From NCBI GenBank assembly GCA_963663475.2, contig CAXXJV010000002.1, positions 256,001 to 320,000 on the forward strand: a stretch of DNA of 64,000 nt. The letters are read 5' to 3'. Source of the DNA: Candidatus Cloacimonadales bacterium. GTDB lineage: Bacteria; Cloacimonadota; Cloacimonadia; Cloacimonadales; JAFGVF01. The first letter of the stretch is position 1. Every line of letters starts with the position of its first letter. This document shows positions 47,940-64,000 of this stretch, piece by piece. The position numbers were made by a program, and so were the translations under genes. The notes beneath the pieces are model-generated. The model was given only the letters and a program-made list of their open reading frames with translations. It did not search any database and was not told the origin of the DNA.

Positions 47940-48100
47940 TTAGTCCTCCATATAGTAAATTTTACATCATAATAATAAGCAAAATCAAGTTTCTAACATG
48001 ATTATTTTTATGGCAAGTATTATTTTTAGATATTTGCAATCAAAATACAGACATGTTTTTTTTAGTATTTGATTAATTTTCTTAGAAAAGTGAAAAACTA

Positions 48101-48222
48101 TGCACTTTGAAATTAAATTGCAGTGAATGAGAAATTATTTTGCAGTTTAGTCAAAAGTACACTGTTGAGAAATTAAATTGCAGTTTAGTTCTAGGATTTA
48201 GAAATTAAATTGCAGTTTAGTT
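48101..48222 (+). repeat. Four direct repeats GAAATTAAATTGCAGT(TTAGT): putative transposase-binding left end
   Basis: Cores at 48109, 48131 (2 mismatches), 48169 and 48201, between the last host gene and the repressor. Confidence 0.8.
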
Positions 48223-48225
48223 TAT

Positions 48226-48681
48226 TCAAAAGTTATTTTTTTGTAGTTTAATAATCAAATCTTTACACTCTAAAAGTTCTCTTAACCTGGTAAATAATTC
48301 TTGATTAAGTTCTTGATTTTTGTTTGAAAGGATAGAGCATTCTTTTTCAGACTCTTCAATGCTTTTTTTTAAGTCATTACAGACCTTTTCCAGCTGATCA
48401 TAACGTCTTCTTAAGTTAATTAACTCACTATTATCTATCCTCTTCTCCTGGGGCTCTTTATTATCCGATAAAAACATCTCTCCCTTACCTGTTAATAACC
48501 AATCCAAAGACACTTTAAAATGTTCGGATATAAGAATAGCCGCCTTTGTTGAAGGCATATTTTTATTATTTTCAATGTCAGAAAGGTTACCTGGGCTAAT
48601 GCCAATAGACTTAGCTAACTTAGTTAAAGATAAACTATTACGCCTCCTTAAATCTTTAATACGAGAACCTATATTTTCCAT
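48226..48681 (-). CDS. Prophage repressor (XRE HTH with coiled-coil C-terminus)
   Basis: IGSRIKDLRRRNSLSLTKLAKSIGISPGNLSDIENN...VSLDWLLTGKGEM; ATG 48681 with AAGGA RBS. Confidence 0.88.
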   Translation of the reverse strand: MENIGSRIKDLRRRNSLSLTKLAKSIGISPGNLSDIENNKNMPSTKAAILISEHFKVSLDWLLTGKGEMFLSDNKEPQEKRIDNSELINLRRRYDQLEKVCNDLKKSIEESEKECSILSNKNQELNQELFTRLRELLECKDLIIKLQKNNF

Positions 48682-48692
48682 TTTTGTTCCTT

Positions 48693-48771
48693 TTTCCGAA
48701 TATTTATCTTGACACATTCTTATTTCCGAATAATCTTGGTTTTAGAATAAAACAAAAAAGGAATCTGTCAA
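48693..48771. promoter_or_regulatory. Lysis/lysogeny switch: overlapping divergent promoters and operator repeats
   Basis: Rightward TTGACA(48709)-16-TAATCT; leftward TTGACA(48771)-16-TATTCT; TTTCCGAATA at 48693 and 48723, TTTAGAATA at 48741. Confidence 0.65.
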
Positions 48772-48965
48772 TGAAAAAAACAGAAAAGAGAAAAGTAGCA
48801 GAAGTGTTAAGAGCTTACAGAGCCATTAACAGGCTTTCCCAGGGAGAGTTTGGAAAACTATGTGACTTAACCCAGATGACAGTTTCTTTAATAGAGAATG
48901 AAAGATTCGAAAGGGTATCACTAGACACAATAAAGAAGGTAGAGGATTATGTGGCTCACCACTAA
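48771..48965 (+). CDS. Cro/Ner-like XRE HTH protein
   Basis: LRAYRAINRLSQGEFGKLCDLTQMTVSLIENE; divergent from the repressor. Confidence 0.85.
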   Translation: MKKTEKRKVAEVLRAYRAINRLSQGEFGKLCDLTQMTVSLIENERFERVSLDTIKKVEDYVAHH

Positions 48966-50994
48966 AGAAGCTGCTAAAAAATTAGGTATATCAACAAAAA
49001 CTATTAGAAGACGGATTTCTAATGGCGAATTGAAGACTAAATATGAAACAATCTATAAAAATGGAAGTGGAATAAAGACTCAATTTATATATGTCTTTTT
49101 TGATGAAAATAATCAGATGGACACTTCAAAAAAATCAGATGGACATCAGATGGACACTTCAAAAAAATCAGATGGACATCAGATGGACACTTCAAAAAAA
49201 TCAGATGGACATCAGATGGACACTTCAAAAAAATCAGATGGACATCAGATGGACACTTCTATCACCCCCCAAATCCAACCCTTAACCCTTCCTCCAATTT
49301 TATCAGATTATGGTCCTGATTTTTTCATTAAGCGGACATCTGGTTCCATGCGGGACAAGTTAATCGAGACATATTTAAATTTAAGTCGAGATGAGAAGAG
49401 TCAAGTTTTGGGATATGTCAGGCAGTTCATGAGTGAGCGAACCTGGTATAGTTGGGTAAGCCGATATAGGAATAGGGGTCATTTAAAGAGAAAGGTAAGA
49501 GCAGATAGGGGTAAAAGCCGTAAAGAGCTTCCTACTTTTATGCAGGAGTTATTGCAGGCAATTCTTATTTCTCATCCTCAATGGAATGTTCAGAAGGCTT
49601 ACGAGGATATGAAGCTATTGGCAGTCAATGGGGACTTAGTAGATTATTATACTGGTGAAGTATATGAAGATGTAAGTGAGTATTTGGTCCGTGAATGGAT
49701 AAAGACTTCGATCGTTCGTGATAGATGGTATTTCAGGTGGTATCCTAAGAGCAGGCGAAATCTTTATACCAGTATGAGTCATGCTCGAGGAATAAACCCA
49801 CCTAACACGGTATGGATGATAGATGATCATGACCAGGATGTATTAGTATGGAGTAAAGACAAGGATGGAAATGACAGGCAAATCAGGCCAAAGGTAATTC
49901 GTTCCTTGGATCCAGAGACTAATATGATAATGGGCTGGTGCATGACAGATGACACATATGGTTCTATTGAGATAAAGACAGCTATCATAGATGGAATAAT
50001 CAAGCATAGATGTATTCCTAAGCAGATATATTTAGAATGTGATAAAAGAATGCGGGAAAGCGGATTGATTGAAGGTTTAGAGAAGTTAGGAATAGAAGTA
50101 ATAGGAACTCCTTACAATCCGACAGCTAAGGTTAATGTAGAGCGAAGTTTTGGCAATGACAGGATGGAGCTTGATAGCAAGTATGATTCTTATATTAACC
50201 ACAACACAGTTGAGCGTCCAGATGATGCAGACAGAAGAGTTTTCACCAATTACGAGGAGTATTTCCAGGATTATGCAGATTATGTAGAGCATTGGAATAC
50301 CCAGCGACCAAGTATCTTCAGGGGCAAGATAAAAATGACTCCTGTAGATATGTGGAATGCCTGGATAAAGAGAGGTTGGAAACCTGAAATGTTACCAATG
50401 AATGTAATTGACCATATTCCTTACTGGTTTGGCAAGAAAGAAGTAAGGGTAGTTCAGGGTGGTAGAGTAAGATTTACTATAGATGGTGAGCAGTTCTACT
50501 ATTTAGGAGAGTGCTTAATGCAACTTCCTAATGGAACCCCTGTAGATATAAGAAGAAAGTTTAATGATCCTCGAGAGGGTTATGTATATATAGGTAATGA
50601 GAATTTAGGCAAGATATTCTTACAAGAGAAAGTAGGTTATGGATTCTTAGAGTTCTCACAACCGGAAGCTGTGAAAATGGTACAAGGATTTAATCTCATG
50701 AGAACCAAGTTATTGAAGGTTAATGATGAAGATTATCCATTTATCAAATCTTATCTTAATAGAATTGAGGAACTTAGCAAGTCACAAATCAAAGACGCAA
50801 CTATGTTAATCCCCAATAAGATCATTCGTTTCATCAACGAAAAGACAGGTTCAGCTTTAGAAGTATCTGAGAAGATGCGACAAGAAGAAGTATCAGTTCT
50901 TAAGGTTAAGAGTGGTTTAACTAGGAAGATGGATAGTAAGGTGAATGATTTGGATGATGAAATTAGTGCCTTATTGGGAGGAAGTGGAGAGTGA
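48949..50994 (+). CDS. Mu-type DDE transposase/integrase
   Basis: N-terminal HTH (WLTTKEAAKKLGIS), RADRGKSR, WMIDDHDQD, PKQIYLECD, YNPTAKVNVERSFG, WN...TP..MW, C-terminal beta-barrel. Confidence 0.88.
   Translation: MWLTTKEAAKKLGISTKTIRRRISNGELKTKYETIYKNGSGIKTQFIYVFFDENNQMDTSKKSDGHQMDTSKKSDGHQMDTSKKSDGHQMDTSKKSDGHQMDTSITPQIQPLTLPPILSDYGPDFFIKRTSGSMRDKLIETYLNLSRDEKSQVLGYVRQFMSERTWYSWVSRYRNRGHLKRKVRADRGKSRKELPTFMQELLQAILISHPQWNVQKAYEDMKLLAVNGDLVDYYTGEVYEDVSEYLVREWIKTSIVRDRWYFRWYPKSRRNLYTSMSHARGINPPNTVWMIDDHDQDVLVWSKDKDGNDRQIRPKVIRSLDPETNMIMGWCMTDDTYGSIEIKTAIIDGIIKHRCIPKQIYLECDKRMRESGLIEGLEKLGIEVIGTPYNPTAKVNVERSFGNDRMELDSKYDSYINHNTVERPDDADRRVFTNYEEYFQDYADYVEHWNTQRPSIFRGKIKMTPVDMWNAWIKRGWKPEMLPMNVIDHIPYWFGKKEVRVVQGGRVRFTIDGEQFYYLGECLMQLPNGTPVDIRRKFNDPREGYVYIGNENLGKIFLQEKVGYGFLEFSQPEAVKMVQGFNLMRTKLLKVNDEDYPFIKSYLNRIEELSKSQIKDATMLIPNKIIRFINEKTGSALEVSEKMRQEEVSVLKVKSGLTRKMDSKVNDLDDEISALLGGSGE
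49112..49259 (+). repeat. Perfect 33-bp tandem repeat x4.5 inside the transposase
   Basis: ATCAGATGGACACTTCAAAAAAATCAGATGGAC encodes QMDTSKKSDGH; contains 9 copies of ATCAGATGGAC. Confidence 0.97.
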
Positions 50995-51054
50995 TTTTGA
51001 ATTGAGAATAAAGGGATATTTGAACAGAGAATAGAGTGATTAAGAGTGAGAAAT

Positions 51055-51167
51055 GTAGGGGCGAAACATCTTTCGCCCAATTAAGAAACCACCCCGTCTT
51101 GGAAATACCAAGACACCCCTCCACAGAGGGGAATTAAGAATGCCGGCAAGATGCCAGCGTTCCCAGT
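51055..51167 (+). repeat. Cluster of three different REP-like hairpins
   Basis: GTAGGGGCGAAACATCTTTCGCCC; ACCACCCC...CACCCCTCCACAGAGGGGAATT (also 57654-57692); GAATGCCGGCAAGATGCCAGCGTTCCCAG (also 52721-52751). Confidence 0.75.
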
Positions 51168-51185
51168 AAAATAAGGAGTAAGAGA

Positions 51186-51458
51186 ATGGAATTAGAAGTA
51201 ATATTAAAAGAATGGGAAGATGAAGTAAGTGATTTATACAAGTTACTTCAGCAGGATGAGGAAGAGAAGAAGAAGATCAATCTCAAAATGAAAGAGAGTG
51301 AACTAGGTCAACAACGATTGGAGTTAACCAGGAGAATTAAAAAGATAAAAGGCTTAATTGAGCAAAGACGCTTTGAGATATCCGGGTTAAAGAAAGCTGA
51401 ACAAAGGCTTAAAGGCAAGGTAAAGGCAAAGAGGCGATTAACCATAGGAGAAAATTAA
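51186..51458 (+). CDS. Phage coiled-coil hypothetical protein
   Basis: AAGGAG RBS; charged helical 90 aa. Confidence 0.7.
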   Translation: MELEVILKEWEDEVSDLYKLLQQDEEEKKKINLKMKESELGQQRLELTRRIKKIKGLIEQRRFEISGLKKAEQRLKGKVKAKRRLTIGEN

Positions 51459-51462
51459 GGCA

Positions 51463-51648
51463 ATGCTATGCAGGTACTGTAATGGGAAGTTAAAGGTAAT
51501 TAAGACCGAGTGTAATGATAGTGGAGTAATGCGAATAAGACGCTGTAATGATTGCGGAATGGTAATCACTACCTTTGAGAAAAACAGTCAGGAGAAAAGA
51601 GCCAATGGAAAGAAAAGCAGCAATAAGGCTGATTTGGCACAAAAGTAA
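51463..51648 (+). CDS. Zinc-ribbon protein, Ogr/Delta- or NrdR-N-like
   Basis: CRYC-x21-CNDC followed by TTFE. Confidence 0.65.
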   Translation: MLCRYCNGKLKVIKTECNDSGVMRIRRCNDCGMVITTFEKNSQEKRANGKKSSNKADLAQK

Positions 51649-52006
51649 AGACATGGGATGGACACCTGAAGAGCTTCATCAGCAGATAGGTAGTCTAAAC
51701 ATGGTTCGATTTGATAGGATAAGCTGTTGTTCAGGACGGGAGTTATCTCTAATCCTGAACCAGCTTTTTCAGGTTCAAGCATTTGTGGCAGACAGTAAAT
51801 CGGTAAGATATTTGAAGTATCTGTGTAAAGATAATGATAATAAGGAGACCTTGAAAGGTATTCTTAAGCGTTGGAAAAAGCAAAGTGTATATCAAATGAA
51901 TAACAAGCAATTAGCGTTTGCTATATCGTTTTTAAAGGGAGATGAGACTGGAGTTAGGAGTGAGGAGTTGAAGAGGCTCACCACAGAGAACACAGAGAAG
52001 AATTGA
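51605..52006 (+). CDS. GemA/gp16-like (DUF1018-like) protein
   Basis: IRLIW...MGW...L...S......EL..IL..L pattern; AGGAG RBS; Mu-like early context. Confidence 0.5.
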   Translation: MERKAAIRLIWHKSKDMGWTPEELHQQIGSLNMVRFDRISCCSGRELSLILNQLFQVQAFVADSKSVRYLKYLCKDNDNKETLKGILKRWKKQSVYQMNNKQLAFAISFLKGDETGVRSEELKRLTTENTEKN

Positions 52007-52080
52007 GAATTGAGAGTTGAGAGTTGAGAATTTCCTCACACGAAGACACGAAGACACGAAGAAAAAAAAGGAGTAAAATT

Positions 52081-52305
52081 ATGACTATATTTTTATTATT
52101 CACCACGATGGTATTAGCAATAATGCTTACTTTATCATTTTTCGGTTCAACAGGCCGAATATCAGAATTAGAAGAGAAGAACTTTCTTTTAAAGAGTGAG
52201 AACTATCAATTAAAGCAGAAGTTTAACCAATCACAAGACAAGCTAAAGCTTATAAAAGTTCAAGCTAAGAAATTGAGAAATATTCAGAAGTATAGGGGGT
52301 GCTAA
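52081..52305 (+). CDS. Small membrane-anchored coiled-coil protein
   Basis: AAGGAG RBS, N-terminal hydrophobic helix, then heptads. Confidence 0.65.
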   Translation: MTIFLLFTTMVLAIMLTLSFFGSTGRISELEEKNFLLKSENYQLKQKFNQSQDKLKLIKVQAKKLRNIQKYRGC

Positions 52306-52536
52306 ATGGCTGCTTTGCATAAAGCCTTAGTACAGAATGACGGTATATACTGTAATGGCACCTGGTATTATCATAAGGATATCTTAGTGAAAATGGGCCA
52401 AGAGTGCCTGGTGGAGAAAACAGGATTAGGAGAAAGAGCTAATATTTATGATTTAGAAGGTGAGAGATGGGATGGCCAAGCCCAAGCCGTGGTAACGGTG
52501 AGTGTTAAGCCTTTGAAGAGAGGAGTTAGGAAATGA
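52306..52536 (+). CDS. Stand-alone Mu-transposase C-terminal-like domain
   Basis: VQNDGIYCNGTWYY...MGQECLV...IYDLEG matches the V..GI..G..Y...G..V...VYD..G pattern. Confidence 0.5.
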   Translation: MAALHKALVQNDGIYCNGTWYYHKDILVKMGQECLVEKTGLGERANIYDLEGERWDGQAQAVVTVSVKPLKRGVRK

Positions 52537-52769
52537 AGTGCTTCACACGAAGGCACGAAGGCACGAAGAAGAAAAACCCCTTAACACAGAGTTTCACAGA
52601 GGTTAAGAGGAGTTTCACAGAGGTTTGAGAGTGGAAAGGATATGAAAAGCGTACTGGAATACGCATTTATACAATTTTAGATATTAACAAATAAGTCAAG
52701 AAGAAATTAAGAATTAAAGAGAATGCGGGCAGGGATGCCCACGTTCCCAGTTAATTAAAGGAGAAAAAG

Positions 52770-53411
52770 ATGTTTAAGTTTTTAGAAGCACGAAAAGAGG
52801 GAAACAAGACTATCTTAAGCGTTCCCAGATGTTTATATGAAGATTTTAGAAATGAAATAATGTTATTAATACATGGTAGTTTACTTATCGTTAATGATCA
52901 TAAGGATTTCCAAAAACAGGTAGAAAAACTGGAAAGTTTTTTGAGTGGTTCGGATCTACATATTTCTCGAGATACTCTTTCGGTATATCTTGCTTACAGT
53001 AATTGTACGGAAATATATTTGACCACACACGGAGTAAAAAGGGGCTGTAAAATGAATGAAAAGGCCACAGCAGAAGCCATGAAAGATGTATTTCGTGCTT
53101 CTGATATTCTAGAAGTTCTTGAGCATTTTTCTGAAAGCTTTGATCAAAGTCTCTTACCCGGGTCAGAGGGTCAGAGAAAGTGTAATGAAAGCACCAGATT
53201 GTGTAAAGAACCAGCTGAGCAAAGCGAGAAGAGGAAGTCTTTGCTTGAATTTCTGCGACGTGATCTGGATGAAGCGATGAAAGCTTTAATACAAACCGGA
53301 CAGTATGCTTATATTTGGCAAGAGAATCTAATAGAGCTGTTTCGCCCGACACTAAACATAATTGATAAAGATGTTCCACCTGCTTCTCAGATAGAAGTGA
53401 AGATAGTTTAG
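52770..53411 (+). CDS. Hypothetical protein overlapped by an antisense ORF
   Basis: 213 aa, AAGGAG RBS. Confidence 0.5.
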   Translation: MFKFLEARKEGNKTILSVPRCLYEDFRNEIMLLIHGSLLIVNDHKDFQKQVEKLESFLSGSDLHISRDTLSVYLAYSNCTEIYLTTHGVKRGCKMNEKATAEAMKDVFRASDILEVLEHFSESFDQSLLPGSEGQRKCNESTRLCKEPAEQSEKRKSLLEFLRRDLDEAMKALIQTGQYAYIWQENLIELFRPTLNIIDKDVPPASQIEVKIV

Positions 53412-53457
53412 TAATAGCTTCAGCAACCCGCATTAGGTTGAGTTCATGTTGTTTCAT
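52891..53457 (-). CDS. Antisense hypothetical protein with its own promoter and RBS
   Basis: AGGAGG (53468-53463) 5 nt before ATG; TTGACT at 53513-53508; 188 codons open. Confidence 0.55.
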   Translation of the reverse strand: MKQHELNLMRVAEAITKLSSLLSEKQVEHLYQLCLVSGETALLDSLAKYKHTVRFVLKLSSLHPDHVAEIQAKTSSSRFAQLVLYTIWCFHYTFSDPLTRVRDFDQSFQKNAQELLEYQKHEIHLSWLLLWPFHSFYSPFLLRVWSNIFPYNYCKQDIPKEYLEKYVDPNHSKNFPVFLPVFGNPYDH

Positions 53458-53530
53458 GGGTTCCTCCTAAAGGTAAATTTACAAATAAATACAAGTATTA
53501 ACAAATAAGTCAAGGAAAAAGGAGAAAAAG

Positions 53531-53803
53531 ATGAAACCTAGAGTGATAATCCATTTAGAGTGTGATAGTGTATTAAGAGAACCTAAAGTAGTTAAAGCCT
53601 TGGAAGATTTAGGAATCGAAATAACAGGGACAGCTTATAATCCAACAAGTAAAGTTGATGTGACGATACAGAAAGAATTAACCCTTGAAATGGCTCACAA
53701 GAAGATTGAGAGCATGTTCGAGGGGCTCCCACCCTCTAAAGTAGCCAATATACTAAGTTATATTGCTGATGAGCTAAGAGCTGATACGAGGTTTAAACTA
53801 TGA
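53531..53803 (+). CDS. Small protein homologous to part of the transposase catalytic core
   Basis: IHLECDSVLRE...LEDLGIEITGTAYNPTSKVDV versus transposase IYLECDKRMRE...LEKLGIEVIGTPYNPTAKVNV. Confidence 0.75.
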   Translation: MKPRVIIHLECDSVLREPKVVKALEDLGIEITGTAYNPTSKVDVTIQKELTLEMAHKKIESMFEGLPPSKVANILSYIADELRADTRFKL

Positions 53804-54093
53804 AATACTATGAAATAATAGACCCTAAAGTAAAAGAAATGACTATACAAGGCATATTAGGGTCTTGTAACAAGTTAAATTTTACCGAAGAGATGCTTGA
53901 AATAGTCAAGAATATATCAGTCAGCCTGGTTCCAAAAGATAAAGGTACTTTATTAATTACAGCCTGCTTTCCTTCCAGACGGGTATTAGTAAAATCAGAT
54001 ACTCTACCAGTTAAAAATGCTGATGATCAAATTGAAATAAGCAAAGAAGAGTATGATGCTTTGGTGGAAGCAAATCATCTGGAGGAAGAGTGA
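53800..54093 (+). CDS. Phage hypothetical protein
   Basis: ATGA overlap with the upstream ORF; GAGG RBS. Confidence 0.6.
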   Translation: MKYYEIIDPKVKEMTIQGILGSCNKLNFTEEMLEIVKNISVSLVPKDKGTLLITACFPSRRVLVKSDTLPVKNADDQIEISKEEYDALVEANHLEEE

Positions 54094-54305
54094 AGGAACA
54101 AAGAAAATATGTATGGAAAATCAAGTATAAAAGCGGTAATGGAGACTATATAGAAGTAAGTGTTATTGCATCAGGTTTTGAAGCATTAGCAAAGTGGTTG
54201 TACCGGAGAATATGGGTAAACAATGTAATAACCATTTCCTTAGATAAAGAAATATTGGAGCTTGTTGATGAAGACTCTGATATACTACAATTAGATAACA
54301 ATTAA
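54090..54305 (+). CDS. Phage hypothetical protein
   Basis: GGAGG RBS and GTGA overlap. Confidence 0.6.
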   Translation: MKEQRKYVWKIKYKSGNGDYIEVSVIASGFEALAKWLYRRIWVNNVITISLDKEILELVDEDSDILQLDNN

Positions 54306-54331
54306 CCACCCCGCCTATACAGGCATCAAAG

Positions 54332-54370
54332 AGTTGTCGGAAGTCGCTACTTCGTAAGCAAGACCCGTCA
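54332..54370 (+). repeat. 39-bp repeat (second copy at 57424-57462)
   Basis: AGTTGTCGGAAGTCGCTACTTCGT(A/G)AGCAAGACC(C/T)GTCA, 2 mismatches, internal hairpin. Confidence 0.85.
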
Positions 54371-54382
54371 AAGGAGACAAGT

Positions 54383-55093
54383 ATGAATAACGAACAATTT
54401 ATGGAGTTAAGTCCTGAAGAAAGATTTGAAGCAATCAGGAAGCTCTTAGGAAAGATGGAACTTAGTATGGTAGAGACAGGTAATCTGCTCTCTGAGATTA
54501 AGAGAATGCGAACATACAAAATAAAGGGTTATAAGAGCTTTAGAGAGTTTACTGAAGCTGAGTATAACCTACCCGGTAGAGTGGCCAATTCTTTAACTAA
54601 GATGTATGACTTCTTTATTAGAGAGATGAACCTGGATGAAGATACTATCAATAAGGTTGGTTTTGATAAGTTGGAGTTAATCCACCCAATAGTAAAAGAT
54701 ACAAGTTATGAAGTTCAGGAGGAGTGGGTAAAAACAGCTGAAGACCTTACATATCCTGAGTTAAATGAGAAAGTAAAAGAGATAAAAGTAAAAGCCCGGG
54801 AAGAAGCAAAGACCTTAAAAGATGTCTTAGTAGAACAATACTTTGAGAACATGCTGGGATACTTCAACTGCTCAAAGAGAGAATTAAATTACAAGTTAGC
54901 TCTTTATTTCCAGGATATGGATTTGGAAGAAGTTAATGAAGTGATCAGGAAGCAACAAAGGAAGTTTGAGGAAGAAATAGAAGGGTCTCACACGAAGGTA
55001 CGAAGACACGAAGAAGATAAGGCCCTTAACACAGAGGATACTTTTCCTAAGGGGAGTTTCGTAGAGATTTTAAGAGAAAAGGATAAAAGATGA
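54383..55093 (+). CDS. DUF3102-like phage protein
   Basis: GNLLSEIK...Y...GYKSFREF.E.E......A..L pattern; AAGGAG RBS. Confidence 0.55.
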   Translation: MNNEQFMELSPEERFEAIRKLLGKMELSMVETGNLLSEIKRMRTYKIKGYKSFREFTEAEYNLPGRVANSLTKMYDFFIREMNLDEDTINKVGFDKLELIHPIVKDTSYEVQEEWVKTAEDLTYPELNEKVKEIKVKAREEAKTLKDVLVEQYFENMLGYFNCSKRELNYKLALYFQDMDLEEVNEVIRKQQRKFEEEIEGSHTKVRRHEEDKALNTEDTFPKGSFVEILREKDKR

Positions 55094-55149
55094 AAAAAGG
55101 AATCAAACACAGTGAAATTAGTGGATAGATTAAAAAAGGAGAAAGAATA

Positions 55150-55761: not shown

Positions 55762-55823
55762 GAGAAGACTTTTACACGAATTTAAACGAATTTAAACCAA
55801 TTAACACGAATTAGGAGAAGATA

Positions 55824-56393: not shown

Positions 56394-56469
56394 AATATCC
56401 TCCTTTGGAATTAATTATTTCAATAATCGAAGGATAAACTAAAAATGTCAAGTTTTTAAAGGAGAGAAG

Positions 56470-56682
56470 ATGTCTATAATGCTTTGGAAATATTATCTAC
56501 TGGGCTTATTTATTGTTTTAGGATATGGAAGATTATCAAAAAGTGTAATATGTTATCATTTTTTAATAATGCTTATGTTTCCTATATTAGTGGTAATCCA
56601 CTGCCTGAAGATAATAATTCTCTATATAAAAGCATATTGTCCAAAATATGAAATAAGATTTATCCCGGAGAAAAGAAAATGA
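56470..56682 (+). CDS. Small hydrophobic membrane protein
   Basis: AAGGAG RBS; two hydrophobic stretches. Confidence 0.55.
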   Translation: MSIMLWKYYLLGLFIVLGYGRLSKSVICYHFLIMLMFPILVVIHCLKIIILYIKAYCPKYEIRFIPEKRK

Positions 56683-57353
56683 CCAACAGAGAGTTATATA
56701 TCAAAGCTGTAGAGTTAGTAGGTAAGGAAGTAATGGAAGTCAAGCAGAGGCAGTTCTTACAGAGGATAATTAAGAAGAACCAAGCCCCTAAATCCCCTAA
56801 AGGGGACTTTGATAAGATGGGAATGAAGAATGAGATATACCAGGAAATAATCACTTATTTAAATAACCTGTCAGGTAAACAATTTCGTTGGAATACTCCA
56901 GAGACTAAAGCTTTAATCAGAGCCAGATTAAACGAAGGTTTTACAGTAAAAGAATTTAAACAGGTTATAGATATTAAGTGTAAGCAATGGCTGACAAATG
57001 AGTATTTTAAATTCTTAAGGCCGAAGACTCTTTTTGGTACTAAATTTGAGGGTTATCTGCAAGAATGGATAGTCTTTAAGAAGAAAGAAGAATATCAAAG
57101 GAAAGAGCTCGAGAAAGCTAGGAGGATTGAGAGAGGACTTCCTGATGAAACTATTACTCCGGAAGAGTTGAAAAAACAAGAAGAGTGGAGAAAGCAAAGT
57201 AAAGAGCTCTTAGCTAAAGCTAGTGAAGAGGATTATAAGACCTTTTATAAGCAATTAAAGCCACCTTTTAAAGACATGGCCTATAAAAGGGGATTGAAGG
57301 ATAATCTTGTGAAGTTGTATTATATTCAGTGGTTAAAAATGAATAAAGACTGA
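56679..57353 (+). CDS. Conserved phage C-terminal domain (Phg_2220_C-like) protein
   Basis: EIITYLN...G..F.....LIRARLNEGFT...FKQVID.K...W.....LRPKTLFG.KFEGYL. Confidence 0.8.
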   Translation: MTNRELYIKAVELVGKEVMEVKQRQFLQRIIKKNQAPKSPKGDFDKMGMKNEIYQEIITYLNNLSGKQFRWNTPETKALIRARLNEGFTVKEFKQVIDIKCKQWLTNEYFKFLRPKTLFGTKFEGYLQEWIVFKKKEEYQRKELEKARRIERGLPDETITPEELKKQEEWRKQSKELLAKASEEDYKTFYKQLKPPFKDMAYKRGLKDNLVKLYYIQWLKMNKD

Positions 57354-57539
57354 AGAGTTAGGAGTTAGGAGTTAGGAGTTTAAGAGGCTCACACGAAGGC
57401 ACGAAGACACGAAGAAGAAGACCAGTTGTCGGAAGTCGCTACTTCGTGAGCAAGACCTGTCATTAGAGTAATTAGTGTAATTAGCCTGGGTTGGCATAGC
57501 TTTAGCGACGCCACCTGGATAGATTAAAAGGAGTTGAAG

Positions 57540-59018
57540 ATGAGTAGGTTCGCCAAGATATTAGCAATTAGTAGAATAGCTAAAAAAACAGGTAATAATG
57601 GCCTTTCCAAAAAAGACCAGGAGAAGTTGTTTAATGCCCTGGTAAAAGATATTACCACCCCGCCCAGGGGCACCCCTCCACAGAGGGGAATTAAAAAGAG
57701 CAATCTTTCTAATTTTACCAAAGTGGCAGAAGAGATAATGGGAGATAATCCCCAAGTAACAAAGTCTTATACAAAATTAGTAGAGAAATGGATAGAGCCT
57801 TATTCAGCAGGGCAAAAGCAGCTAATATTCAGTCAATACCAATCCTTTAGTCAAACAGCTTGGTTTCGTTCTTTAACTAATGACTATGTGTCTAATCTGC
57901 AAGGAAGAGGAGTTACTAAGGTTCAAATCTTGGCTTATATGGATGACAGAACAACCGAGATATGCCAGGCCATGCACGGAAGAGTCTTTGATATATCTTC
58001 TTATAGCATTGACCCTGATTTTGTTACTTATGAGAAGATTGAGTCTATGGGTTATGGAAGTATGCCAACTAAAGATATGAAGGTAATGCTACCTCCTTAT
58101 CATTTTAATTGCAGGACTACTTTTGTTACTTATGAAGAGGCGACTAATGATTTCGATAAAATCAAACAGAAAATATATGATGTAGAAAGTTTAACAAGCA
58201 AAGATGTTAAAACGATTATGGAGCCTCTCAAGGGGGCTGAATGGCTTAATAAATCAAAAGAGAGCCAGCACTATCAGAAGCATGGGATTGACCAAGGCTT
58301 AAGCAGAGAGAAATACAAGCAACAAATTATTGACAGTTTACAAGACAATGATAATATGTACTTGGCAGTTAATAAAGGTAACAAAAACCTTACTTTAACA
58401 ACGGTTAAATATCATCATCTAAGTGATAAAGGTGTTAAAAAATACCTATTTACTATCTTCCTGGTTAAAGAAGGCAAGGTTGTTACCAGTCATCTTAAGC
58501 CAGAGAATGAAGTTTTGCCAAAGGTTAAAGATAAGGCAATAAAAGTTGTTAGTATTAATAATGGTAAGCAAAGAATAATAAAGGAAGCTATCATGAAAAA
58601 AGAAGATTATTGGAACAGGCATAACTCTTATGACAGCATTATAGCAGAGGTTGAGGATAACAAGAAGTGGGGTAATTATCCTCTCAACTGCCTTGTTACC
58701 TGGTACCAATATGTACCCAGTGAGTTAGAAGATGATGAAGACTGGCATTGGGAATTAGATAGATCTATTCCTGCCCGTTATGATATTCATATCCTGCTGA
58801 TGAATGACTATAACTTCACCCAGGAAGAAAGAAACTTAATAGAGAGAACTGATAAAAAACTCTTAGATAACATTGATTATTACTTTAAGAAGATTAAAGT
58901 TATAAGCCCAGATGAACTGGCAGAGTTTTTGATTTGGTTGCAGGAAGCGAGAGAAGCAGAGAAGAAAGAAGAGTCTCACACGAAGACACTAAGCCACGAA
59001 GAAAACACAAAAAAATAA
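57540..59018 (+). CDS. MuF/SPP1 gp7-like head morphogenesis protein with long C-terminal extension (putative toxin plus immunity-like segment)
   Basis: DDRTTEICQAMHG and PPYHFNCR; then HYQKHG...GKVVTSH; then an acidic ~140-aa segment starting at in-frame ATG 58593. Confidence 0.75.
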   Translation: MSRFAKILAISRIAKKTGNNGLSKKDQEKLFNALVKDITTPPRGTPPQRGIKKSNLSNFTKVAEEIMGDNPQVTKSYTKLVEKWIEPYSAGQKQLIFSQYQSFSQTAWFRSLTNDYVSNLQGRGVTKVQILAYMDDRTTEICQAMHGRVFDISSYSIDPDFVTYEKIESMGYGSMPTKDMKVMLPPYHFNCRTTFVTYEEATNDFDKIKQKIYDVESLTSKDVKTIMEPLKGAEWLNKSKESQHYQKHGIDQGLSREKYKQQIIDSLQDNDNMYLAVNKGNKNLTLTTVKYHHLSDKGVKKYLFTIFLVKEGKVVTSHLKPENEVLPKVKDKAIKVVSINNGKQRIIKEAIMKKEDYWNRHNSYDSIIAEVEDNKKWGNYPLNCLVTWYQYVPSELEDDEDWHWELDRSIPARYDIHILLMNDYNFTQEERNLIERTDKKLLDNIDYYFKKIKVISPDELAEFLIWLQEAREAEKKEESHTKTLSHEENTKK

Positions 59019-59028
59019 AGGAGTTATT

Positions 59029-59574
59029 ATGAGAAAGTTAGTATTTATAGTGTGTTTGGTATTGTCGTTAATCCAATTAAATGCCAAAAATGATGTTATA
59101 AGTCATACTGAGTTTGGCTGTACCTTGGGGCATTCAATAAACCAAAGAGGCTATACTGCTTCAGCATATCTGTTTAGCCGAAGTAAGTACAGTTCTAAAT
59201 TTTCTCCATTTATAAAAGTTCTAATCGACTACAAAGGCGAACCTAAAGGTGTACTTATAGAAGATGAACCTTTTAGTTGGTGGGTTGATACAGGTAGAGA
59301 ACTATATGAAAAACATATTATTTCTATTGGGAATGTTTATACTATAGACAGAAAATGCAGATATAAATTTGTTCCTTACTTAGGTTTTGGCTTTAAAGAA
59401 AATTTTATTCAGTGGGATTCATCCATTGGAGAGGTATTTTATTCTTCAAAATCTATTAATACTCTTGGTGAAGCTGGAGTAGATTTTCTGTTTGTGTATA
59501 AGCAATTACTTATTTCATTAGGTATTTCTGCTCAGGCAGGAGCTAATCTGGGGGTTGGATTTAGGTACTATTAA
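59029..59574 (+). CDS. Outer-membrane beta-barrel-like moron protein
   Basis: Signal peptide; alternating beta pattern (PYLGFGF, EAGVDF); C-terminal LGVGFRYY. Confidence 0.65.
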   Translation: MRKLVFIVCLVLSLIQLNAKNDVISHTEFGCTLGHSINQRGYTASAYLFSRSKYSSKFSPFIKVLIDYKGEPKGVLIEDEPFSWWVDTGRELYEKHIISIGNVYTIDRKCRYKFVPYLGFGFKENFIQWDSSIGEVFYSSKSINTLGEAGVDFLFVYKQLLISLGISAQAGANLGVGFRYY

Positions 59575-59709
59575 AAAATATCTTGACAGCGTGTAAAACA
59601 CTGCACCCCTCATGGCAGTGAAGATGATATTAACGCAGGAATGATAGCTATAGTTCTTCGTGAACTATCTGATGAGGTAACTAAAGATTTGTTTCAATCC
59701 TAAATAATC

Positions 59710-59742
59710 AAAGAGCAGGCATCAAAACCTGCTCTTTTTTTT
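59710..59742 (+). terminator. Terminator ending the rightward phage operon
   Basis: AAAGAGCAGG-loop-CCTGCTCTTT followed by a T tract. Confidence 0.85.
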
Positions 59743-59754
59743 GCTTAAAATTAT

Positions 59755-59790
59755 CTAAACTGCAATTTAATTTCTCAATCTTAGAACTAA
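59755..59790 (-). repeat. Inverted copy of the left-end repeat
   Basis: 34/36 identical to the reverse complement of 48185-48220. Confidence 0.9.
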
Positions 59791-59791
59791 A

Positions 59792-59813
59792 GGCGTATTC
59801 AATACGCCCCTAC
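59792..59813 (-). repeat. GTAG-type REP-like hairpin
   Basis: Minus strand reads GTAGGGGCGTATTGAATACGCC. Confidence 0.7.
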
Positions 59814-59830
59814 ATTCTCAATTCTCAATT

Positions 59831-60325
59831 CTAAATTCTCAATTCCTGAAGTGTCATTTTCACTGCCAATTCTAAGAAAGGGCTAGGTTTTCTTCCGTGT
59901 TTTTTCATATTGATAGCAATAGCCCAAGCAGTTTGGGTTATTTTTTTATCTATCAAGTCTTGTTTCTTGGGTCTTTTACTTCTTTTCATGCTTTGAGCTT
60001 TAGACCAGGCACTTTTTATCTCATTTTTTACTATTCCCTTCTTGCGAACCCATTCTTTAATCTTATCAACTGGGGGCATATGGGGCTTGATTCCTTCATG
60101 TAGGTACTTAGGATATTTGGTAGAACCTGAGAGTTTCCCACCTTCAGCAACATATACCAGAATATAGGTTTCAGTATCAGACACCACAGTTTTAGTCTGG
60201 ATAGAGTTCTTTAAATGCCCTGTAACGACCATTTTCTCACTTTCTACGATGTTTATTGCCCTTGCCCTTATCTTGTCAGCAATTAAACCTAATTCTTCTT
60301 TTAAATGCCTTTTTACGCTTTCCAT
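59831..60325 (-). CDS. HK97 gp10-like neck/tail-completion protein
   Basis: TGHLKNSI, YPKYLHEG..PHMPP, G.KPSPFL. Confidence 0.7.
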   Translation of the reverse strand: MESVKRHLKEELGLIADKIRARAINIVESEKMVVTGHLKNSIQTKTVVSDTETYILVYVAEGGKLSGSTKYPKYLHEGIKPHMPPVDKIKEWVRKKGIVKNEIKSAWSKAQSMKRSKRPKKQDLIDKKITQTAWAIAINMKKHGRKPSPFLELAVKMTLQELRI

Positions 60326-60510
60326 CAATTCTCCTTATTAATCTATCCACTAATTTCACTAATTACACTAATTAAGAAATACCCTTAACACAGAGTTTCA
60401 CAGAGGTTAAGAGGAGTTTCACAGAGTTTTTAAACTCTCAATTCTCAACTCTCAATTCTTCTCTGTGTTCTCTGTGTTCTCTGTGGTGAGTCTCTTCAAC
60501 TTCTCACTCA

Positions 60511-60873
60511 CTATATATCAATAAAAGGCAAAAATCCTTCTCGTTCATTTATGATGTCATAGATAATCAGATTAGCTTCTTTGAGATAAAAGTCTTGTCT
60601 TCTCATCACATCAGCATCAGAAATTAAATGTTGAGCAGATTCACCTGTCCCCACTTGTTTAAAGACTCCTTTATTGCCTGCTATATAAGATATACGAGGT
60701 ATCAGGTAATATGCAGTTAAATACTTAAGAGCCTTGGTTATAGCATTATCTCCTGTATCTTCTACACCCTTGCGGCCGATGTATTCATAAGCATCATTTA
60801 TAGCATTCTCAATCACATCGTTATTTACATCTGTAATGTTCATAAATGTTTTAATCTGGTCTGCAGTAATCAT
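60511..60873 (-). CDS. Putative head-tail adaptor protein
   Basis: ITADQIK.F...I..AI.DA...I...ALKYLTAYY helical pattern; context. Confidence 0.5.
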   Translation of the reverse strand: MITADQIKTFMNITDVNNDVIENAINDAYEYIGRKGVEDTGDNAITKALKYLTAYYLIPRISYIAGNKGVFKQVGTGESAQHLISDADVMRRQDFYLKEANLIIYDIINEREGFLPFIDI

Positions 60874-61250
60874 AAAAGCTCCTCAAAGTGTAAGGTTTCT
60901 GTAGTTAAATTAAAGAGGGTGGCCTTGTACTCACTTCCGTTTATAACAAGGGGTGGTGATGTTTCAAGAGAGACAAATAAGTCAGCATCAAACTGCTCAA
61001 TTTTACTGAGCAATTCTAAGACAATTTGAGTATGATTTACACTAGTTTCATCTGTTTTAGTTACTATGGTAAGACTTACGTCCACCTGGTATCGGTTGAG
61101 GTTTAGAGATTCATTTTTCTTTTTAAAGACCTTTTCCAAGGAATACAGAGCCTTTCTATGGTAAGAGGCAATATCAGTATTAATATCTACTAAAGAAAGG
61201 CCTGTGCCTGCAATTAGCTCTTCTATCACATTCCATAAGGGGTAAATCAT
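60870..61250 (-). CDS. Phage structural hypothetical protein (possible tail terminator)
   Basis: Translationally coupled to the portal and to the next gene. Confidence 0.45.
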   Translation of the reverse strand: MIYPLWNVIEELIAGTGLSLVDINTDIASYHRKALYSLEKVFKKKNESLNLNRYQVDVSLTIVTKTDETSVNHTQIVLELLSKIEQFDADLFVSLETSPPLVINGSEYKATLFNLTTETLHFEELL

Positions 61251-62305
61251 TAAGACCTCCTAAGCAAGCTGTCCACACTTGTATTTTCTTTGATATTATA
61301 GACTAGAGGGTTAATAGTGAAGTCTGGATTATTTCCAAAAATACCAGGATATTTCTTTGCCAGTCCTCCGAATTGCCCAGATAAGACTAATTGTTTTGGA
61401 TGGATGGTAGTCTGGAAGAAGATCTCCATTTGCCCTTCAGTTTCTCCTGAACCTCCCATAGCAGTAGTATTAACCATAGAGAGTAAGCGGGGTGGTACTG
61501 CATGACAAGCAATGATGTTAGTAATACATTGTTGCTCCAACTGTAAGAAAGAAGCATCTTCTCTTTGCTGTAAAGCAGTCCATTTTCCTGACATTCCTTC
61601 TTTGTAAGGTATAACTAAAAGTTTATGAGCTCTTTCTTCTCCCTGGAACTTTTGTCTGAAGAAAGATTGAACATTATATTGAGCATTGGGTGAAATAGCT
61701 CCTCCCATTATCTCATAAACATAGTCTGGGATAGCGTTATTATCAAAAAATCTCTCATTATAAGTCTTAATCCTTTTAATAATCCTAATATCAGGGAGTA
61801 TAGGAAGATAAGAAGGTGCACCATAAATTGTAGATAAAGGTGTAGCTTGTTTAAAATGAAATACTTCATCTTCTTTAAAATCAACACTTTCTCCGTTAAC
61901 TGTTTGCCTGTAACCTGTTTTAATTTTTCTCATAGTTTGAGCAGGCAAGTGAAAGATTTGTCTTTTGCTTCCTACTTTAGGTAACTCCCAGTAAGCATTT
62001 CCATACATTTCATAATCCTTAATTGTTTTTAATAATAAAGTAATTGCTGAATCTGTTGGCGTTACTTCTTCCAGGATGTCCATAATTCTCTTATCAAAGC
62101 CCTTGCCCAGGATATTGATTGCTTTCTTTTCAATACACTCAGCATGATAAGGATTGATTGTATAAGCATCAGTGAGTTCATCCATTTCAAAAGGATAGTT
62201 GAACTCGTCGTCTTTTAAATCTAAAGCCTTACTTTTAGATGCTTGAGTATCATCAGATTTACTGATAATTACAAATGGTTCGTAGTTTAATTCATTACTA
62301 TTCAT
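61250..62305 (-). CDS. Phage portal protein, PBSX/P2 gpQ-like
   Basis: YGNAYWE, EVFHFK...IYGAPSY, FFDNNAIP, IIACHAVPPRLL; about 350 aa. Confidence 0.88.
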   Translation of the reverse strand: MNSNELNYEPFVIISKSDDTQASKSKALDLKDDEFNYPFEMDELTDAYTINPYHAECIEKKAINILGKGFDKRIMDILEEVTPTDSAITLLLKTIKDYEMYGNAYWELPKVGSKRQIFHLPAQTMRKIKTGYRQTVNGESVDFKEDEVFHFKQATPLSTIYGAPSYLPILPDIRIIKRIKTYNERFFDNNAIPDYVYEIMGGAISPNAQYNVQSFFRQKFQGEERAHKLLVIPYKEGMSGKWTALQQREDASFLQLEQQCITNIIACHAVPPRLLSMVNTTAMGGSGETEGQMEIFFQTTIHPKQLVLSGQFGGLAKKYPGIFGNNPDFTINPLVYNIKENTSVDSLLRRS

Positions 62306-62337
62306 ATATTTCTCCTTTTATTCCCCTACATTCCTCA

Positions 62338-63606
62338 CTAAACAACCATCACTCCATCAATCACTCTTTCAGAATGTCTTAAATCATAAAGCATAGCTAA
62401 AGACCAAAATTTATCTCCATGATGTTCAGTGCTTTCTGCATTATAGGAGAAGATGTTAGTACGGTTAGCAGATCTCTTTATTGATAAAATATGATTAAGC
62501 AGTGAAGGATCATTTGGTATTAATAGTTTCTTGTCTTCGAAGCCTCTTTTTAATCTTTTGGCAAGCCTTTCTTTAACAGCAGGAGCAAAGCTATATCCCT
62601 CAATTACATTAGGATAAAGGTAAGATAAATCTTCCCAGAGATTATAACCTATACCACCTCTATCTATAGCAAATCCATCTGCATCAGATTGTCTTATCAA
62701 GTTTATAAAAAACTCTTTCTGATAGGCAAAAGTCTCTCTCTTTAAGTCCTTTATATAATTAACAACCATTAACTTATCATCATTAATAAAGGCTCCTGTG
62801 ATAGCAGTTTCATCTTTCTTTCTTCCAATATCAGCAGCATAAAACATTTTAGTGTCTTCAGGGGTTGGATGTTCGTTAACATAAAGACAGGGTTCTATCA
62901 GGTTGTAAGGAATATAAGAGTCTGTAGTATCTAATGGCAGGCATTCATAAGCTTGAGCAAATTCTTCAGGTGTAAAAAGACTTCTTAATTCATCAACATT
63001 AATATCAAGTCCTTCTTCTTTGGCTGTATGAATAGTGATTAAATGCTTAGAAAAAGCATCATTCTTATCCCATATTTCCCAAAACTTATCTATCCTACTC
63101 TTAGGAGTCGAGATTACTGTTACTCTTCCTTGAGCTGCTGTAATAGCAGGAATAATAGCTTTCCATACTTCCCTGTCCTGGATAATAAAAGCAAACTCAT
63201 CTAAATATACATCACCTGCAAAACCTCTAGCAGTCATCCAATTAGTCGCCAAAGCTTTAATACTTTTACCATTGGGCATTAAGATTTCATGTTCAGTATC
63301 ATTAAAAGCTTCTATTCCCATTGCTTTAAGATGACTTCTTACATGGTTCATCACAATAACAGCATTATCTTTAGAAGCTGAAACTATTAACTGGTCCTTG
63401 TTATTAATTAATGAACCAATAATCATCTCTAGGCCTGATAGAAAAGAAAATCCTATTTGTCTCGATTTATTAGCAATCCTATACCTGGATTTATCAGCTA
63501 AGAACTTCTTTTGATATATTCTTAAGTTCTTGATACAGTATTGCTGTATAGCAGTCCTGACAAAAGCAGGTACCTTATCTGTTGACCATATTTGCCCTTT
63601 TTTCAT
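62338..63606 (-). CDS. terL: Terminase large subunit (Mu gp28 / P2 gpP-like)
   Basis: NKSRQIGFS, ARGFAGDVYLDEFAF, ISTP, DIGRKKDET, IDRGGIG, HGDKFWSLA. Confidence 0.92.
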   Translation of the reverse strand: MKKGQIWSTDKVPAFVRTAIQQYCIKNLRIYQKKFLADKSRYRIANKSRQIGFSFLSGLEMIIGSLINNKDQLIVSASKDNAVIVMNHVRSHLKAMGIEAFNDTEHEILMPNGKSIKALATNWMTARGFAGDVYLDEFAFIIQDREVWKAIIPAITAAQGRVTVISTPKSRIDKFWEIWDKNDAFSKHLITIHTAKEEGLDINVDELRSLFTPEEFAQAYECLPLDTTDSYIPYNLIEPCLYVNEHPTPEDTKMFYAADIGRKKDETAITGAFINDDKLMVVNYIKDLKRETFAYQKEFFINLIRQSDADGFAIDRGGIGYNLWEDLSYLYPNVIEGYSFAPAVKERLAKRLKRGFEDKKLLIPNDPSLLNHILSIKRSANRTNIFSYNAESTEHHGDKFWSLAMLYDLRHSERVIDGVMVV

Positions 63607-63813
63607 TTTTCTCCTTTAATCTATCCACGAATTACACTAATTACACTAAGAAATAGCCACCGAAAACACTGAAAACACCGAATATCTTAAATTCGTAAAT
63701 TATTAAATTCTTAAATCTTCTCTGTGTTCTCTGTGTCTCTGTGGTAAAATCTTCTTTCTTCAATTCCTCACTCCTAATTCCTAACTCTTAGCTTGGTCCT
63801 GTCTACAACTTTC

Positions 63814-63837
63814 GGTATAGATGTATATATCTATACC
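63814..63837. promoter_or_regulatory. 24-bp dyad upstream of the rightward late promoter
   Basis: GGTATAGATG-TATA-TATCTATACC, 8 nt before TTGACA at 63846. Confidence 0.45.
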
Positions 63838-63907
63838 AAAACATATTGACACCCTTTAAAAAAAGAGCAATTTTATCCATGTAATTAATTTTATTAAGGA
63901 GGCTTGA

Positions 63908-64000
63908 ATGCCAAAATTAAAAGAGTTAGATGTCTCTTTTGTGTCATTGGTTAAGAACCCTGCCAATAAAAAGGATATCGTATTTAAAGCAGCTGATAAA
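63908..64000 (+). CDS. 5' end of putative prohead protease/scaffold protein; truncated by the window
   Basis: AAGGAGG RBS; MPKLKELDVSFVSLVKNPANKK resembles the VSLV..PAN motif of phage head proteases. Confidence 0.6.
   Translation, partial: MPKLKELDVSFVSLVKNPANKKDIVFKAADK

Follow-up and report, generated by a model that had tools for sequence, protein, structure and literature searches.

A prophage of 26,881 bp at the right-hand end of the DNA stretch analysed here is best read as a siphophage-like transposable phage whose DDE transposase comes without the usual ATPase partner. The stretch (the window) comprises 64,000 nucleotides of a Candidatus Cloacimonadales genome, i.e. positions 256001-320000 of contig C2 of the 3.3-Mb host genome G000 (contigs C1 and C2), and holds the left 60% of the element; the remainder was read from the next 20 kb beyond the window end (L002). 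With a probability of roughly 0.6, we regard the element as a complete temperate tailed phage of a rare and undescribed lineage that lacks the AAA+ ATPase MuB (B), integrates in the manner of Mu and presumably replicates by transposition. The anatomy of the element, its completeness, three independent insertions, the lineage-wide absence of B and the transposase fold (in a predicted model) are demonstrated below.

A first-pass annotation, made from the letters of the window, had proposed an undescribed lineage with a DDE enzyme and no B helper. This proposal holds: the element encodes no MuB-like gene and its relatives are likewise without B after the transposase. We found neither a MuB gene elsewhere in the element nor relatives with B after the transposase, nor are the two halves separate elements. 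The open reading frames (ORFs) scanned comprise 25 of the window and 22 of L002, 15 of which belong to the element. Relatives (L012, L013, L014, L015 and L032) came from collections of genomes, viruses and metagenomes, the further Mu-like prophages D, E and F of G000 served for comparison, and public sequencing runs were consulted as assembled contigs.

Element boundaries and three insertions

The prophage spans C2:304099-330979, corresponding to window position 48099 up to the equivalent of 74979, 10,979 bases past the window end. These limits are set by the target duplication AAAAC, which borders both ends, and by the ends themselves, which are perfect inverted repeats. The left junction reads ...GAAAAGTGAAAAAC/TATGCACTTTGAAATTAAATTGCAGT... 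and the right junction ...ACTGCAATTTAATTTCAAAGTGCATA/AAAACCAATG..., where the slash marks the junction. The features of the ends within the window are:

48094-48098: left copy of the 5-bp target duplication AAAAC; right copy at L002 10980-10984
48099-48151, plus strand: left terminal inverted repeat (TIR), 53 consecutive matches to the right end, terminus 5'-TATGCAC
48109-48216, plus strand: left-end array of four 16-mer putative transposase-binding sites, exact copies of GAAATTAWWTTGCAGT
59759-59774, minus strand: exact copy of the 16-mer inside the element, oriented as at the right end; its flanks resemble the inner right-end units

The left-end copies of GAAATTAWWTTGCAGT start at 48109, 48131, 48169 and 48201 on the plus strand, and five further copies lie on the minus strand of the right end (L002 10835-10969), which terminates at L002 10979. 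In the window the 16-mer occurs six times (four at the left end, one internal and one with one mismatch at 33057) against 0.10 expected by shuffles, and the five right-end copies compare with 0.02 expected. The end-type repeats noted in the first-pass annotation are thus genuine, and the right end that it suggested looking for was located in L002 with its 53-bp TIR and target duplication. Its exact boundary needed correction: it had placed the start at 48101, on a TG, with AACTA (48096-48100) as the duplicated flank, while the element starts at 48099 with the termini 5'-TATGCA...TGCATA-3' and the duplication is AAAAC (48094-48098 and L002 10980-10984).

G000 holds three co-linear copies of the element: copy A, studied here, copy B (C1:1362917-1391188) and copy C, whose left end lies on C2 and whose right end lies on C1, the starts of the two contigs having 10,658 nt in common that align without a mismatch and with a single gap. 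All three terminate in TATGCA...TGCATA with the target duplication (AAAAC for A, ATTAA for B, TAATG for C) directly outside the TA, and none has the Mu-type 5'-TG...CA-3' termini. The insertion sites are all intergenic. Multi-site terminal inverted repeats and a 5-bp duplication at varied sites are therefore present as in Mu-like phages. As one TIR pair and one target duplication bound each of the three copies, the two halves belong to a single element.

Between the three copies the repressor alleles share only 63-70% identity, while the elements are otherwise 98-100% identical over most of their length, so that the copies represent three immunity types. Judged from these sequences, this points to repeated lysogenisation. 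In copies A and C the transposase genes are intact and the 53-bp TIRs perfect; in copy B the transposase gene is split by a 1,453-bp insertion sequence (IS) at C1:1364721-1366173, of which the genome holds eight near-identical copies. Together with D, E and F, G000 carries six transposable prophages, three B-less and three canonical. Both C1 and C2 start inside copy C and their opposite ends overlap as reverse complements; given these overlapping contig ends, C1 and C2 probably form a single circular chromosome that was split at repeats during assembly.

The G+C content is 0.27-0.30 in the flank compared to 0.35-0.39 inside the element, and the GC skew, positive at 48.5-59.5 kb and negative at 59.5-64 kb, agrees with the strand switch of the genes. 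To the right of the element follow OmpH, LpxD, an LpxC-FabZ fusion, LpxA and a protease that carries a sorting domain for type IX secretion, indicating a Bacteroidota-type host. In two wastewater metagenome runs, 8.0-kb contigs match the host flank from 46000 to exactly 48098 and continue for ~4 kb with non-prophage DNA. This is the pattern expected of an unoccupied site, which the contigs may represent. In two isolate-type runs the flank contigs end at 48128, inside the repeated element end.

The internal 16-mer at 59759-59774 lies in the gap between convergent genes, 11.7 kb from the left end, and could have been left behind by a former right end or serve as a binding site for the transposase within the element; it was not found in the available part of L013. 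Contig depths in run X1 are 78.9 for the host flank and 224-322 for phage contigs; depth is not a copy number here. The joints listed for metagenome runs X5 and X6 have short sides at 85% likeness and lie at repeated hairpin elements.

Transposase and absence of a B gene

As in Mu-like phages, a MuA-class DDE transposase stands beside a repressor/Ner pair at the left end, in agreement with the repressor/Cro pair and DDE enzyme read from the window before:

48226-48717, minus strand: CI-type repressor, 163 aa (HTH_19 1.2e-14 / HTH_3)
48684-48965, plus strand: Cro/Ner-type helix-turn-helix (HTH) protein, divergent from the repressor; start probably later, orthologues 64 aa
48949-50994, plus strand: transposase, 681 aa (phrog_310 3.6e-37; MuA/TnsB fold)
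49112-49259, plus strand: perfect 33-bp x 4.5 tandem repeat, in frame within the transposase gene and located where it encodes the disordered linker (residues 53-113)

The transposase comprises an N-terminal HTH, a disordered linker with 11-aa repeats, two DNA-binding domains, an RNase-H DDE core, a beta-barrel and a helical tail. Pfam recognises the HTH domains alone, NCBIfam gives a weak IS481 core match (residues 375-455), and phmmer against PDB sequences returned 0 matches at E 1, so that a fold search was needed. The AlphaFold model (11-sequence alignment, mean pLDDT 67.8) matches ShCAST TnsB (E 1.1e-16) and the Mu transpososome (E 1.2e-14) in Foldseek, and further Tn7 TnsB, IstA (about 1e-8) and retroviral integrases (about 1e-5). 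In VIA-align, model residues 282-559 superpose on the MuA core 259-560, i.e. the catalytic domain and beta-barrel (Z 16.0, root-mean-square deviation 5.0, 248 residues), and residues 128-559 on TnsB 38-475 (Z 18.4). Invariant acidic residues are Asp 292, 293, 295 and 297 (one of these four being the catalytic Asp), D365 and E398, with a spacing of about 33 residues between the second Asp and the Glu. In its predicted structure the enzyme is thus of the MuA/TnsB class, in which each solved member acts together with an AAA+ partner. In the MuA/TnsB/IstA class this partner chooses targets, stimulates strand transfer and confers target immunity.

No such partner is encoded with the transposase, be it of the MuB, TnsC or IstB type. 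The Walker A pattern [AG]x4GK[ST], searched in six frames over the whole 26.9-kb element, has a single match, in a 30-codon frame, which extends the lack of a Walker pair reported earlier for 51.0-59.6 kb. AAA-type Pfam families match none of the ORFs of the element, neither among the 25 scanned in the window nor among the 15 that lie past its end, and the 11 unannotated early ORFs give no AAA-type match even at E up to 5. The large terminase is the sole AAA+/Walker-A-type gene in the element. A six-frame search of the genome for AAA_22 gave 41 matches, none of them inside copies A, B or C. The same search finds AAA_22 genes in D, E and F (C1 about 143000-171000, minus strand; 1906000-1931000, minus strand; 2680000-2710000, plus strand), directly after a Mu-transpos_C transposase and followed by DUF3164, and is hence valid in this genome. 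As had been pointed out, the space directly after the transposase is taken up by hairpins (51045-51190, z -5.0).

The relatives give the same picture. Their transposases are 88% and 79% (L012/L013), 46% (L014), 48-52% (L015) and 42% (L032) identical to that of the element, the sequences of L012 and L013 being almost the same downstream of it. Each of these relatives has a few small ORFs after the transposase (three in L032) and then DUF3164. AAA families match 0 of 39 ORFs of relatives and 0 of a further 9 in L032, and two viral records of 21.9 kb and 9.9 kb hold 0 AAA_22 candidates at E <= 1. As relatives with 42-88% transposase identity also lack B after the transposase, its absence is a lineage trait and not a sign of decay. 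L012/L013, L014 and L015 have an early set in common, namely transposase, 90-aa protein, zinc ribbon, GemA-like protein, DUF3164 and MuF (L012 ends before MuF; L032 was not included in this comparison). Prophages D, E and F contain no homologue of the 90-aa, the zinc-ribbon or the GemA-like protein.

The lineage is rare. A full-length transposase match is found in 2 of 12 genomes of the host family and 2 of 203 of the order, both counts including G000. A profile search of 1.84 billion 50%-identity representatives returned 8 proteins at E <= 1e-30 and 16 at E <= 1e-10. Among 50,697 records of isolated phages there is no close transposase, the best being 23-24% identical over under half the length. 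Relatives are present on viral-metagenome contigs. In L012 (944-2602) the element left end directly adjoins the plasmid genes RepB (Rep_OBD) and Mob_Pre, as if the element had inserted into a small mobilisable plasmid.

The 33-bp repeat of the transposase gene corresponds to an 11-residue repeat in the protein, and the transposases of close relatives vary from 664 to 703 aa. Proteins of ~790-830 aa from sister species (G004:C1:2799963, G004:C1:413273, G005:C1:1453346) match only transposase residues 1 to 97-104, with 46-54% identity. By this comparison the N-terminal end-binding HTH module seems to have been exchanged between otherwise different transposases.

Gene content and head-gene layout

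Between the transposase gene and the end of the window we distinguish the following features:

51045-51190, plus strand: four consecutive GC-rich hairpins in the gap between the transposase and the next gene (-48.4 kcal/mol, z -5.0, 0 of 200 shuffles as stable)
51186-51458, plus strand: 90-aa charged coiled-coil protein, found after the transposase in L012, L013, L014 and L015
51463-51648, plus strand: 61-aa CxxC...CxxC zinc-ribbon protein, lineage-conserved (Zn_ribbon_NrdR 1e-4)
51605-52006, plus strand: 133-aa lineage-conserved protein, weakly GemA-like (Pfam GemA in 1 of 4 orthologues, E 0.0027)
52770-53411, plus strand: 213-aa ORF without family match, not found in L012-L015
53531-53803, plus strand: 90-aa ORF with a partial transposase-core copy (38-47 residues, transposase residues about 359-398)
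54383-55093, plus strand: 236-aa protein (phrog_17202), 55-59% identical to proteins of prophages D and E
55150-55761, plus strand: DUF3164 protein (Pfam 7.5e-49), a hallmark of Mu-like early regions
56679-57353, plus strand: Phg_2220_C-domain protein, 224 aa (1.2e-26), accessory, outside the lineage core
57534-59018, plus strand: MuF-type minor head protein, 494 aa (2.6e-7), within the rightward operon
59029-59574, plus strand: 181-aa ORF with no assigned function, last gene of the rightward block
59710-59737: bidirectional terminator-like hairpin between the convergent blocks, ending the rightward operon
59831-61250, minus strand: genes for three head-tail connector proteins of 165, 120 and 126 aa, the first of which matches phrog_5, neck/tail completion
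61250-62305, minus strand: portal protein (Pfam Phage_portal PF04860; no Pfam match to the Mu-type DUF935)
62338-63606, minus strand: large terminase TerL (Terminase_6N/6C)
63607-63907: 300-bp divergent control region between TerL and the protease operon, with the palindrome GGTATAGAT-N6-ATCTATACC at 63815-63838
63908-64000, plus strand: start of an XkdF-type head protease, 211 aa, running past the window end

Beyond the window the rightward genes continue in L002:

L002 546-1379, plus strand: capsid-like protein (phrog_1623)
L002 2008-2457, plus strand: lysozyme
L002, between lysozyme and tape measure, plus strand: fibre-like genes
L002 6891-9770, plus strand: 959-aa tape measure
L002 9767-10834, plus strand: 355-aa last gene

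The first-pass annotation had recognised the DUF3164, Phg_2220_C and MuF genes, all of which are confirmed by profile matches, as is the opposed orientation of the leftward TerL and portal genes and the head protease starting rightward at 63908. Two of its assignments are weak. The GemA-like call has the single Pfam match given above and an Atlas lead that is below the Atlas threshold. The supposed Ogr-like protein is a CxxC...CxxC zinc ribbon with the Zn_ribbon_NrdR match given above and without a Pfam match to Ogr/Delta; the 61-aa protein may be considered a candidate late-gene activator. The palindrome GGTATAGAT-N6-ATCTATACC, just upstream of the protease operon, is in turn a candidate operator for such an activator. 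Among the Mu-like early genes DUF3164 is thus clear and GemA weak; of the Mu-type head set MuF is present, with the DUF935 portal and gp36/DUF1320 unmatched in the 25 + 22 ORFs by sequence profiles.

About half of the early ORFs are without family match, and the rightward operon includes several small unknowns. Family scans of the 25 + 15 element ORFs revealed no integrase, excisionase, recombinase, polymerase, helicase or primase, and PADLOC matched 0 of 16 accessory ORFs. For the 90-aa coiled-coil protein, Atlas look-alikes were tried and discarded as generic long-helix matches; in L015 one 107-aa ORF lies between this gene and the transposase. Part of the hairpin region (51045-51190) is 80% similar to intergenic DNA of prophage D. 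The core-segment copy in the ORF at 53531-53803 (D365-E398 region; 90-aa library representative P0079) is 47-55% identical to the transposase and present in all copies. A 70-85-nt dispersed repeat (85-98% identity) occurs at 52562-52648 and 60348-60455 of the window and at >25 further C1/C2 sites, sometimes clustered; it is not a tRNA, has no Rfam family and folds no better than shuffles. The tRNA and Rfam scans of 48000-64000 gave 0 and 0 matches.

The head-gene layout of the studied copy, with the portal-TerL operon divergent from the protease/capsid operon, resembles that of P2, as the first-pass annotation had stated. This arrangement is real in this copy and does not extend to the whole lineage. 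The 21.9-kb relative has a single leftward operon, in which the genes for protease, capsid, lysozyme and tape measure and a 469-aa gene precede TerL on its strand. Since the block is co-oriented with TerL in that relative, the divergence seen here reflects an inversion of the protease-to-tape-measure block, and the P2-like layout is, on the sequences compared, specific to the sub-lineage. An invertible segment was considered for the leftward block and rejected, as there are no convincing flanking inverted repeats and no invertase. In L014 and L015, the relatives with the region visible, the connector-portal(-TerL) block is oriented against the early operon, the two converging at MuF.

TerL is nearer to Mu-like phages than to P2. 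The best TerL matches among isolated phages are 28-32% identical, and identity is about 30% to Mu-like phages versus 24% to the P2-type gpP of phage F108. From the P2 module the portal belongs to PF04860, and capsid and Ogr/Delta are without Pfam match. One of the TerL matches, Thiobacimonas phage vB_ThpS-P1, is by its annotation a canonical Mu-like phage with co-oriented genes. Two others, Rhodovulum phage vB_RhkS_P1 and Pelagibaca phage vB_PeaS-P1, we take to be Mu-like, in part from PMC5488378, and Pasteurella phage AFS-2018a is a further match.

Replication mode and relation to known systems

Integration would be carried out by the MuA/TnsB-fold transposase acting on the multi-site terminal inverted repeats, with a 5-bp duplication at near-random intergenic targets. 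The early rightward operon (Ner, transposase, 90-aa coiled-coil protein, zinc ribbon, GemA-like protein, DUF3164, MuF) converges on the leftward TerL-portal-connector operon, and the central divergent region would drive both the latter and the protease-capsid-lysis-tail operon. Replication would proceed by transposition with the host replisome, as in Mu, which is the most economical reading because the element contains no other replication gene. Target capture may be intrinsic to the transposase or aided by small lineage-specific proteins, and packaging is expected to be headful from integrated copies. According to PMC7350765, Mu transposes in vivo without MuB, with ~100-fold lower efficiency; the chemistry of transposition is therefore not dependent on B.

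Several points weigh against this picture. A strongly diverged or non-P-loop helper could be hidden among the unannotated small ORFs, and to our knowledge all solved relatives in the MuA/TnsB/IstA class act with an AAA+ partner. The quality of the transposase model is moderate (pLDDT 67.8, 11 sequences). The differing immunity alleles would fit repeated infection rather than replicative spread in situ, and one copy is dead, with an IS within its transposase gene. The public runs were read as assembled contigs, and replicative transposition, induction and virion formation are predictions. The stronger claim that replicative transposition is completed without any AAA+ partner, with target capture and self-avoidance by the 90-aa/zinc-ribbon/GemA-like trio or by the helical C-terminal tail of the transposase, is a tentative and rather doubtful possibility; this trio occupies the position where B normally sits.

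The first-pass annotation had considered it possible that the transposase is used only for integration, with a separate replication route. Lytic replication could then start, e.g., from a host-driven origin organised by the Phg_2220_C protein or an unannotated early protein. Mu offers a precedent in its non-replicative infection pathway, many early ORFs of the element are unannotated, and the Phg_2220_C protein matches part of a replication-initiator PHROG. However, this match covers positions 228-372 of the 455-position profile, i.e. its C-terminal part only. The protein is absent from L014, L015 and L032 and shares 61-62% identity with its counterparts in the A+B prophages D and E, and is hence an accessory rather than the marker of another replication mode. 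Moreover, family scans found no excisionase or resolvase to release a transposon-ended prophage, and no helicase, primase or polymerase. The absence of B itself would speak for such a scheme, as Mu needs B for efficient replicative transposition (PMC7350765). With Phg_2220_C accessory and no other replication gene at hand, we judge integration without transpositional replication unlikely.

Two further explanations appear far less probable. The elements could be defective or domesticated, either decaying prophages or a phage-derived particle system, as might be suggested by the IS in one transposase gene, a genome small for a tailed transposable phage and the rarity of the lineage (2 of 203 order genomes). 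This is very unlikely given intact transposase genes and perfect 53-bp TIRs in copies A and C, a complete complement of genes for head, connector, tail and lysis, diversified immunity alleles, and relatives on viral-metagenome contigs, one of them abutting plasmid genes. The idea that B is supplied in trans, by an AAA+ protein borrowed from the host or from co-resident A+B prophages, is about as unlikely. It draws on the three A+B Mu-like prophages in the same genome, of which D and E have the 236-aa protein, DUF3164, Phg_2220_C and lysozyme at 55-64% identity to those of the element. Yet the transposases are unrelated in sequence except for the N-terminal HTH (BLASTP E 0.04 and 9e-4), and MuA-MuB contacts are specific. 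The D-type B protein is unmatched at E 1e-5 in G003 (97% complete), the only other species representative with this transposase, a weak argument from one query and one genome; 4 of 4 other genus members searched did have a match.

An intact, multi-copy B-less lineage would allow a direct test of whether the ATPase is dispensable in the life cycle of a transposable phage, and opens a search for its replacement. The compact single-protein enzyme and its defined 53-bp ends should be handy for in vitro transposition assays in a Bacteroidota-type background. If full AAA+-free replicative transposition were true, it would represent a new, ATP-independent target selection in the MuA/TnsB transposase class and the smallest known genome type of a transposable tailed phage, about 23-27 kb. 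Published surveys define 'Mu-like' by the A-B gene pair and a lineage without B is therefore invisible to them. A 2026 preprint (10.64898/2026.05.11.724261) requires A and B to be neighbours and tallies an 'Only Tnp' class without characterising it. In the literature searched, the phages described all have B and we found no account of a B-less transposable phage lineage, although the supplementary tables of PMC7761591 and of this preprint might list such genomes; the Leptospira and Porphyromonas transposable-phage literature yielded nothing on B-less phages.

Among known systems, P2-like phages have in common with this copy a TerL and PF04860 portal divergent from the scaffold/protease-capsid operon and a small zinc-ribbon protein, with TerL 24% identical to gpP of phage F108. 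In contrast to P2, the layout is not lineage-wide, no P2 capsid or Ogr/Delta Pfam match and no sheath gene beside the tape measure were found, and a transposase replaces the integrase. The best structural matches to the transposase are TnsB (Tn7/CAST), Tn552 and IS21 IstA, which have its DNA-binding domains, DDE core and beta-barrel and a similar DD(about 33)E spacing. Tn7/CAST, Tn552 and IS21 act with an AAA+ regulator (TnsC, IstB) that the element lacks, and they are transposons whereas the element is a phage.

Closer in biology are other transposable phages. The fF4-like Bacteroidetes prophages (PMC7761591) have a Bacteroidota-type host and DUF3164 in common with the element. Hankyphage and Candidatus Mubacviridae (PMC12135933; 10.64898/2026.05.11.724261) are likewise described as transposable phages of Bacteroidota; Hankyphages encode MuA and MuB according to the former source. 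Burkholderia phage KS10 resembles the element in having integrated ends without TG...CA and differs in a transposition (B) protein next to the transposase (PMC2628397). Prophages D, E and F reside in the same genome and have DUF3164 in common with the element; D and E alone also have its 236-aa, Phg_2220_C and lysozyme proteins, at 55-64% identity.

Compared to Mu and Mu-like phages (saltoviruses), the element lacks MuB, ends in TA...TA instead of TG...CA, has a PF04860 instead of a DUF935 portal and no Pfam Mu-transpos_C match, and measures 26.9 kb versus about 37 kb, with packaging genes opposing the early operon. Its Asp-Glu spacing is about 33 residues, as in TnsB and integrases, while in MuA the second Asp and the Glu are about 56 residues apart. 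It nevertheless has in common with these phages the repressor and Ner at the left end, the MuA-fold transposase, multi-site TIRs and the 5-bp duplication, as well as DUF3164, MuF, a weakly GemA-like protein, the nearest TerL and the lack of an integrase.

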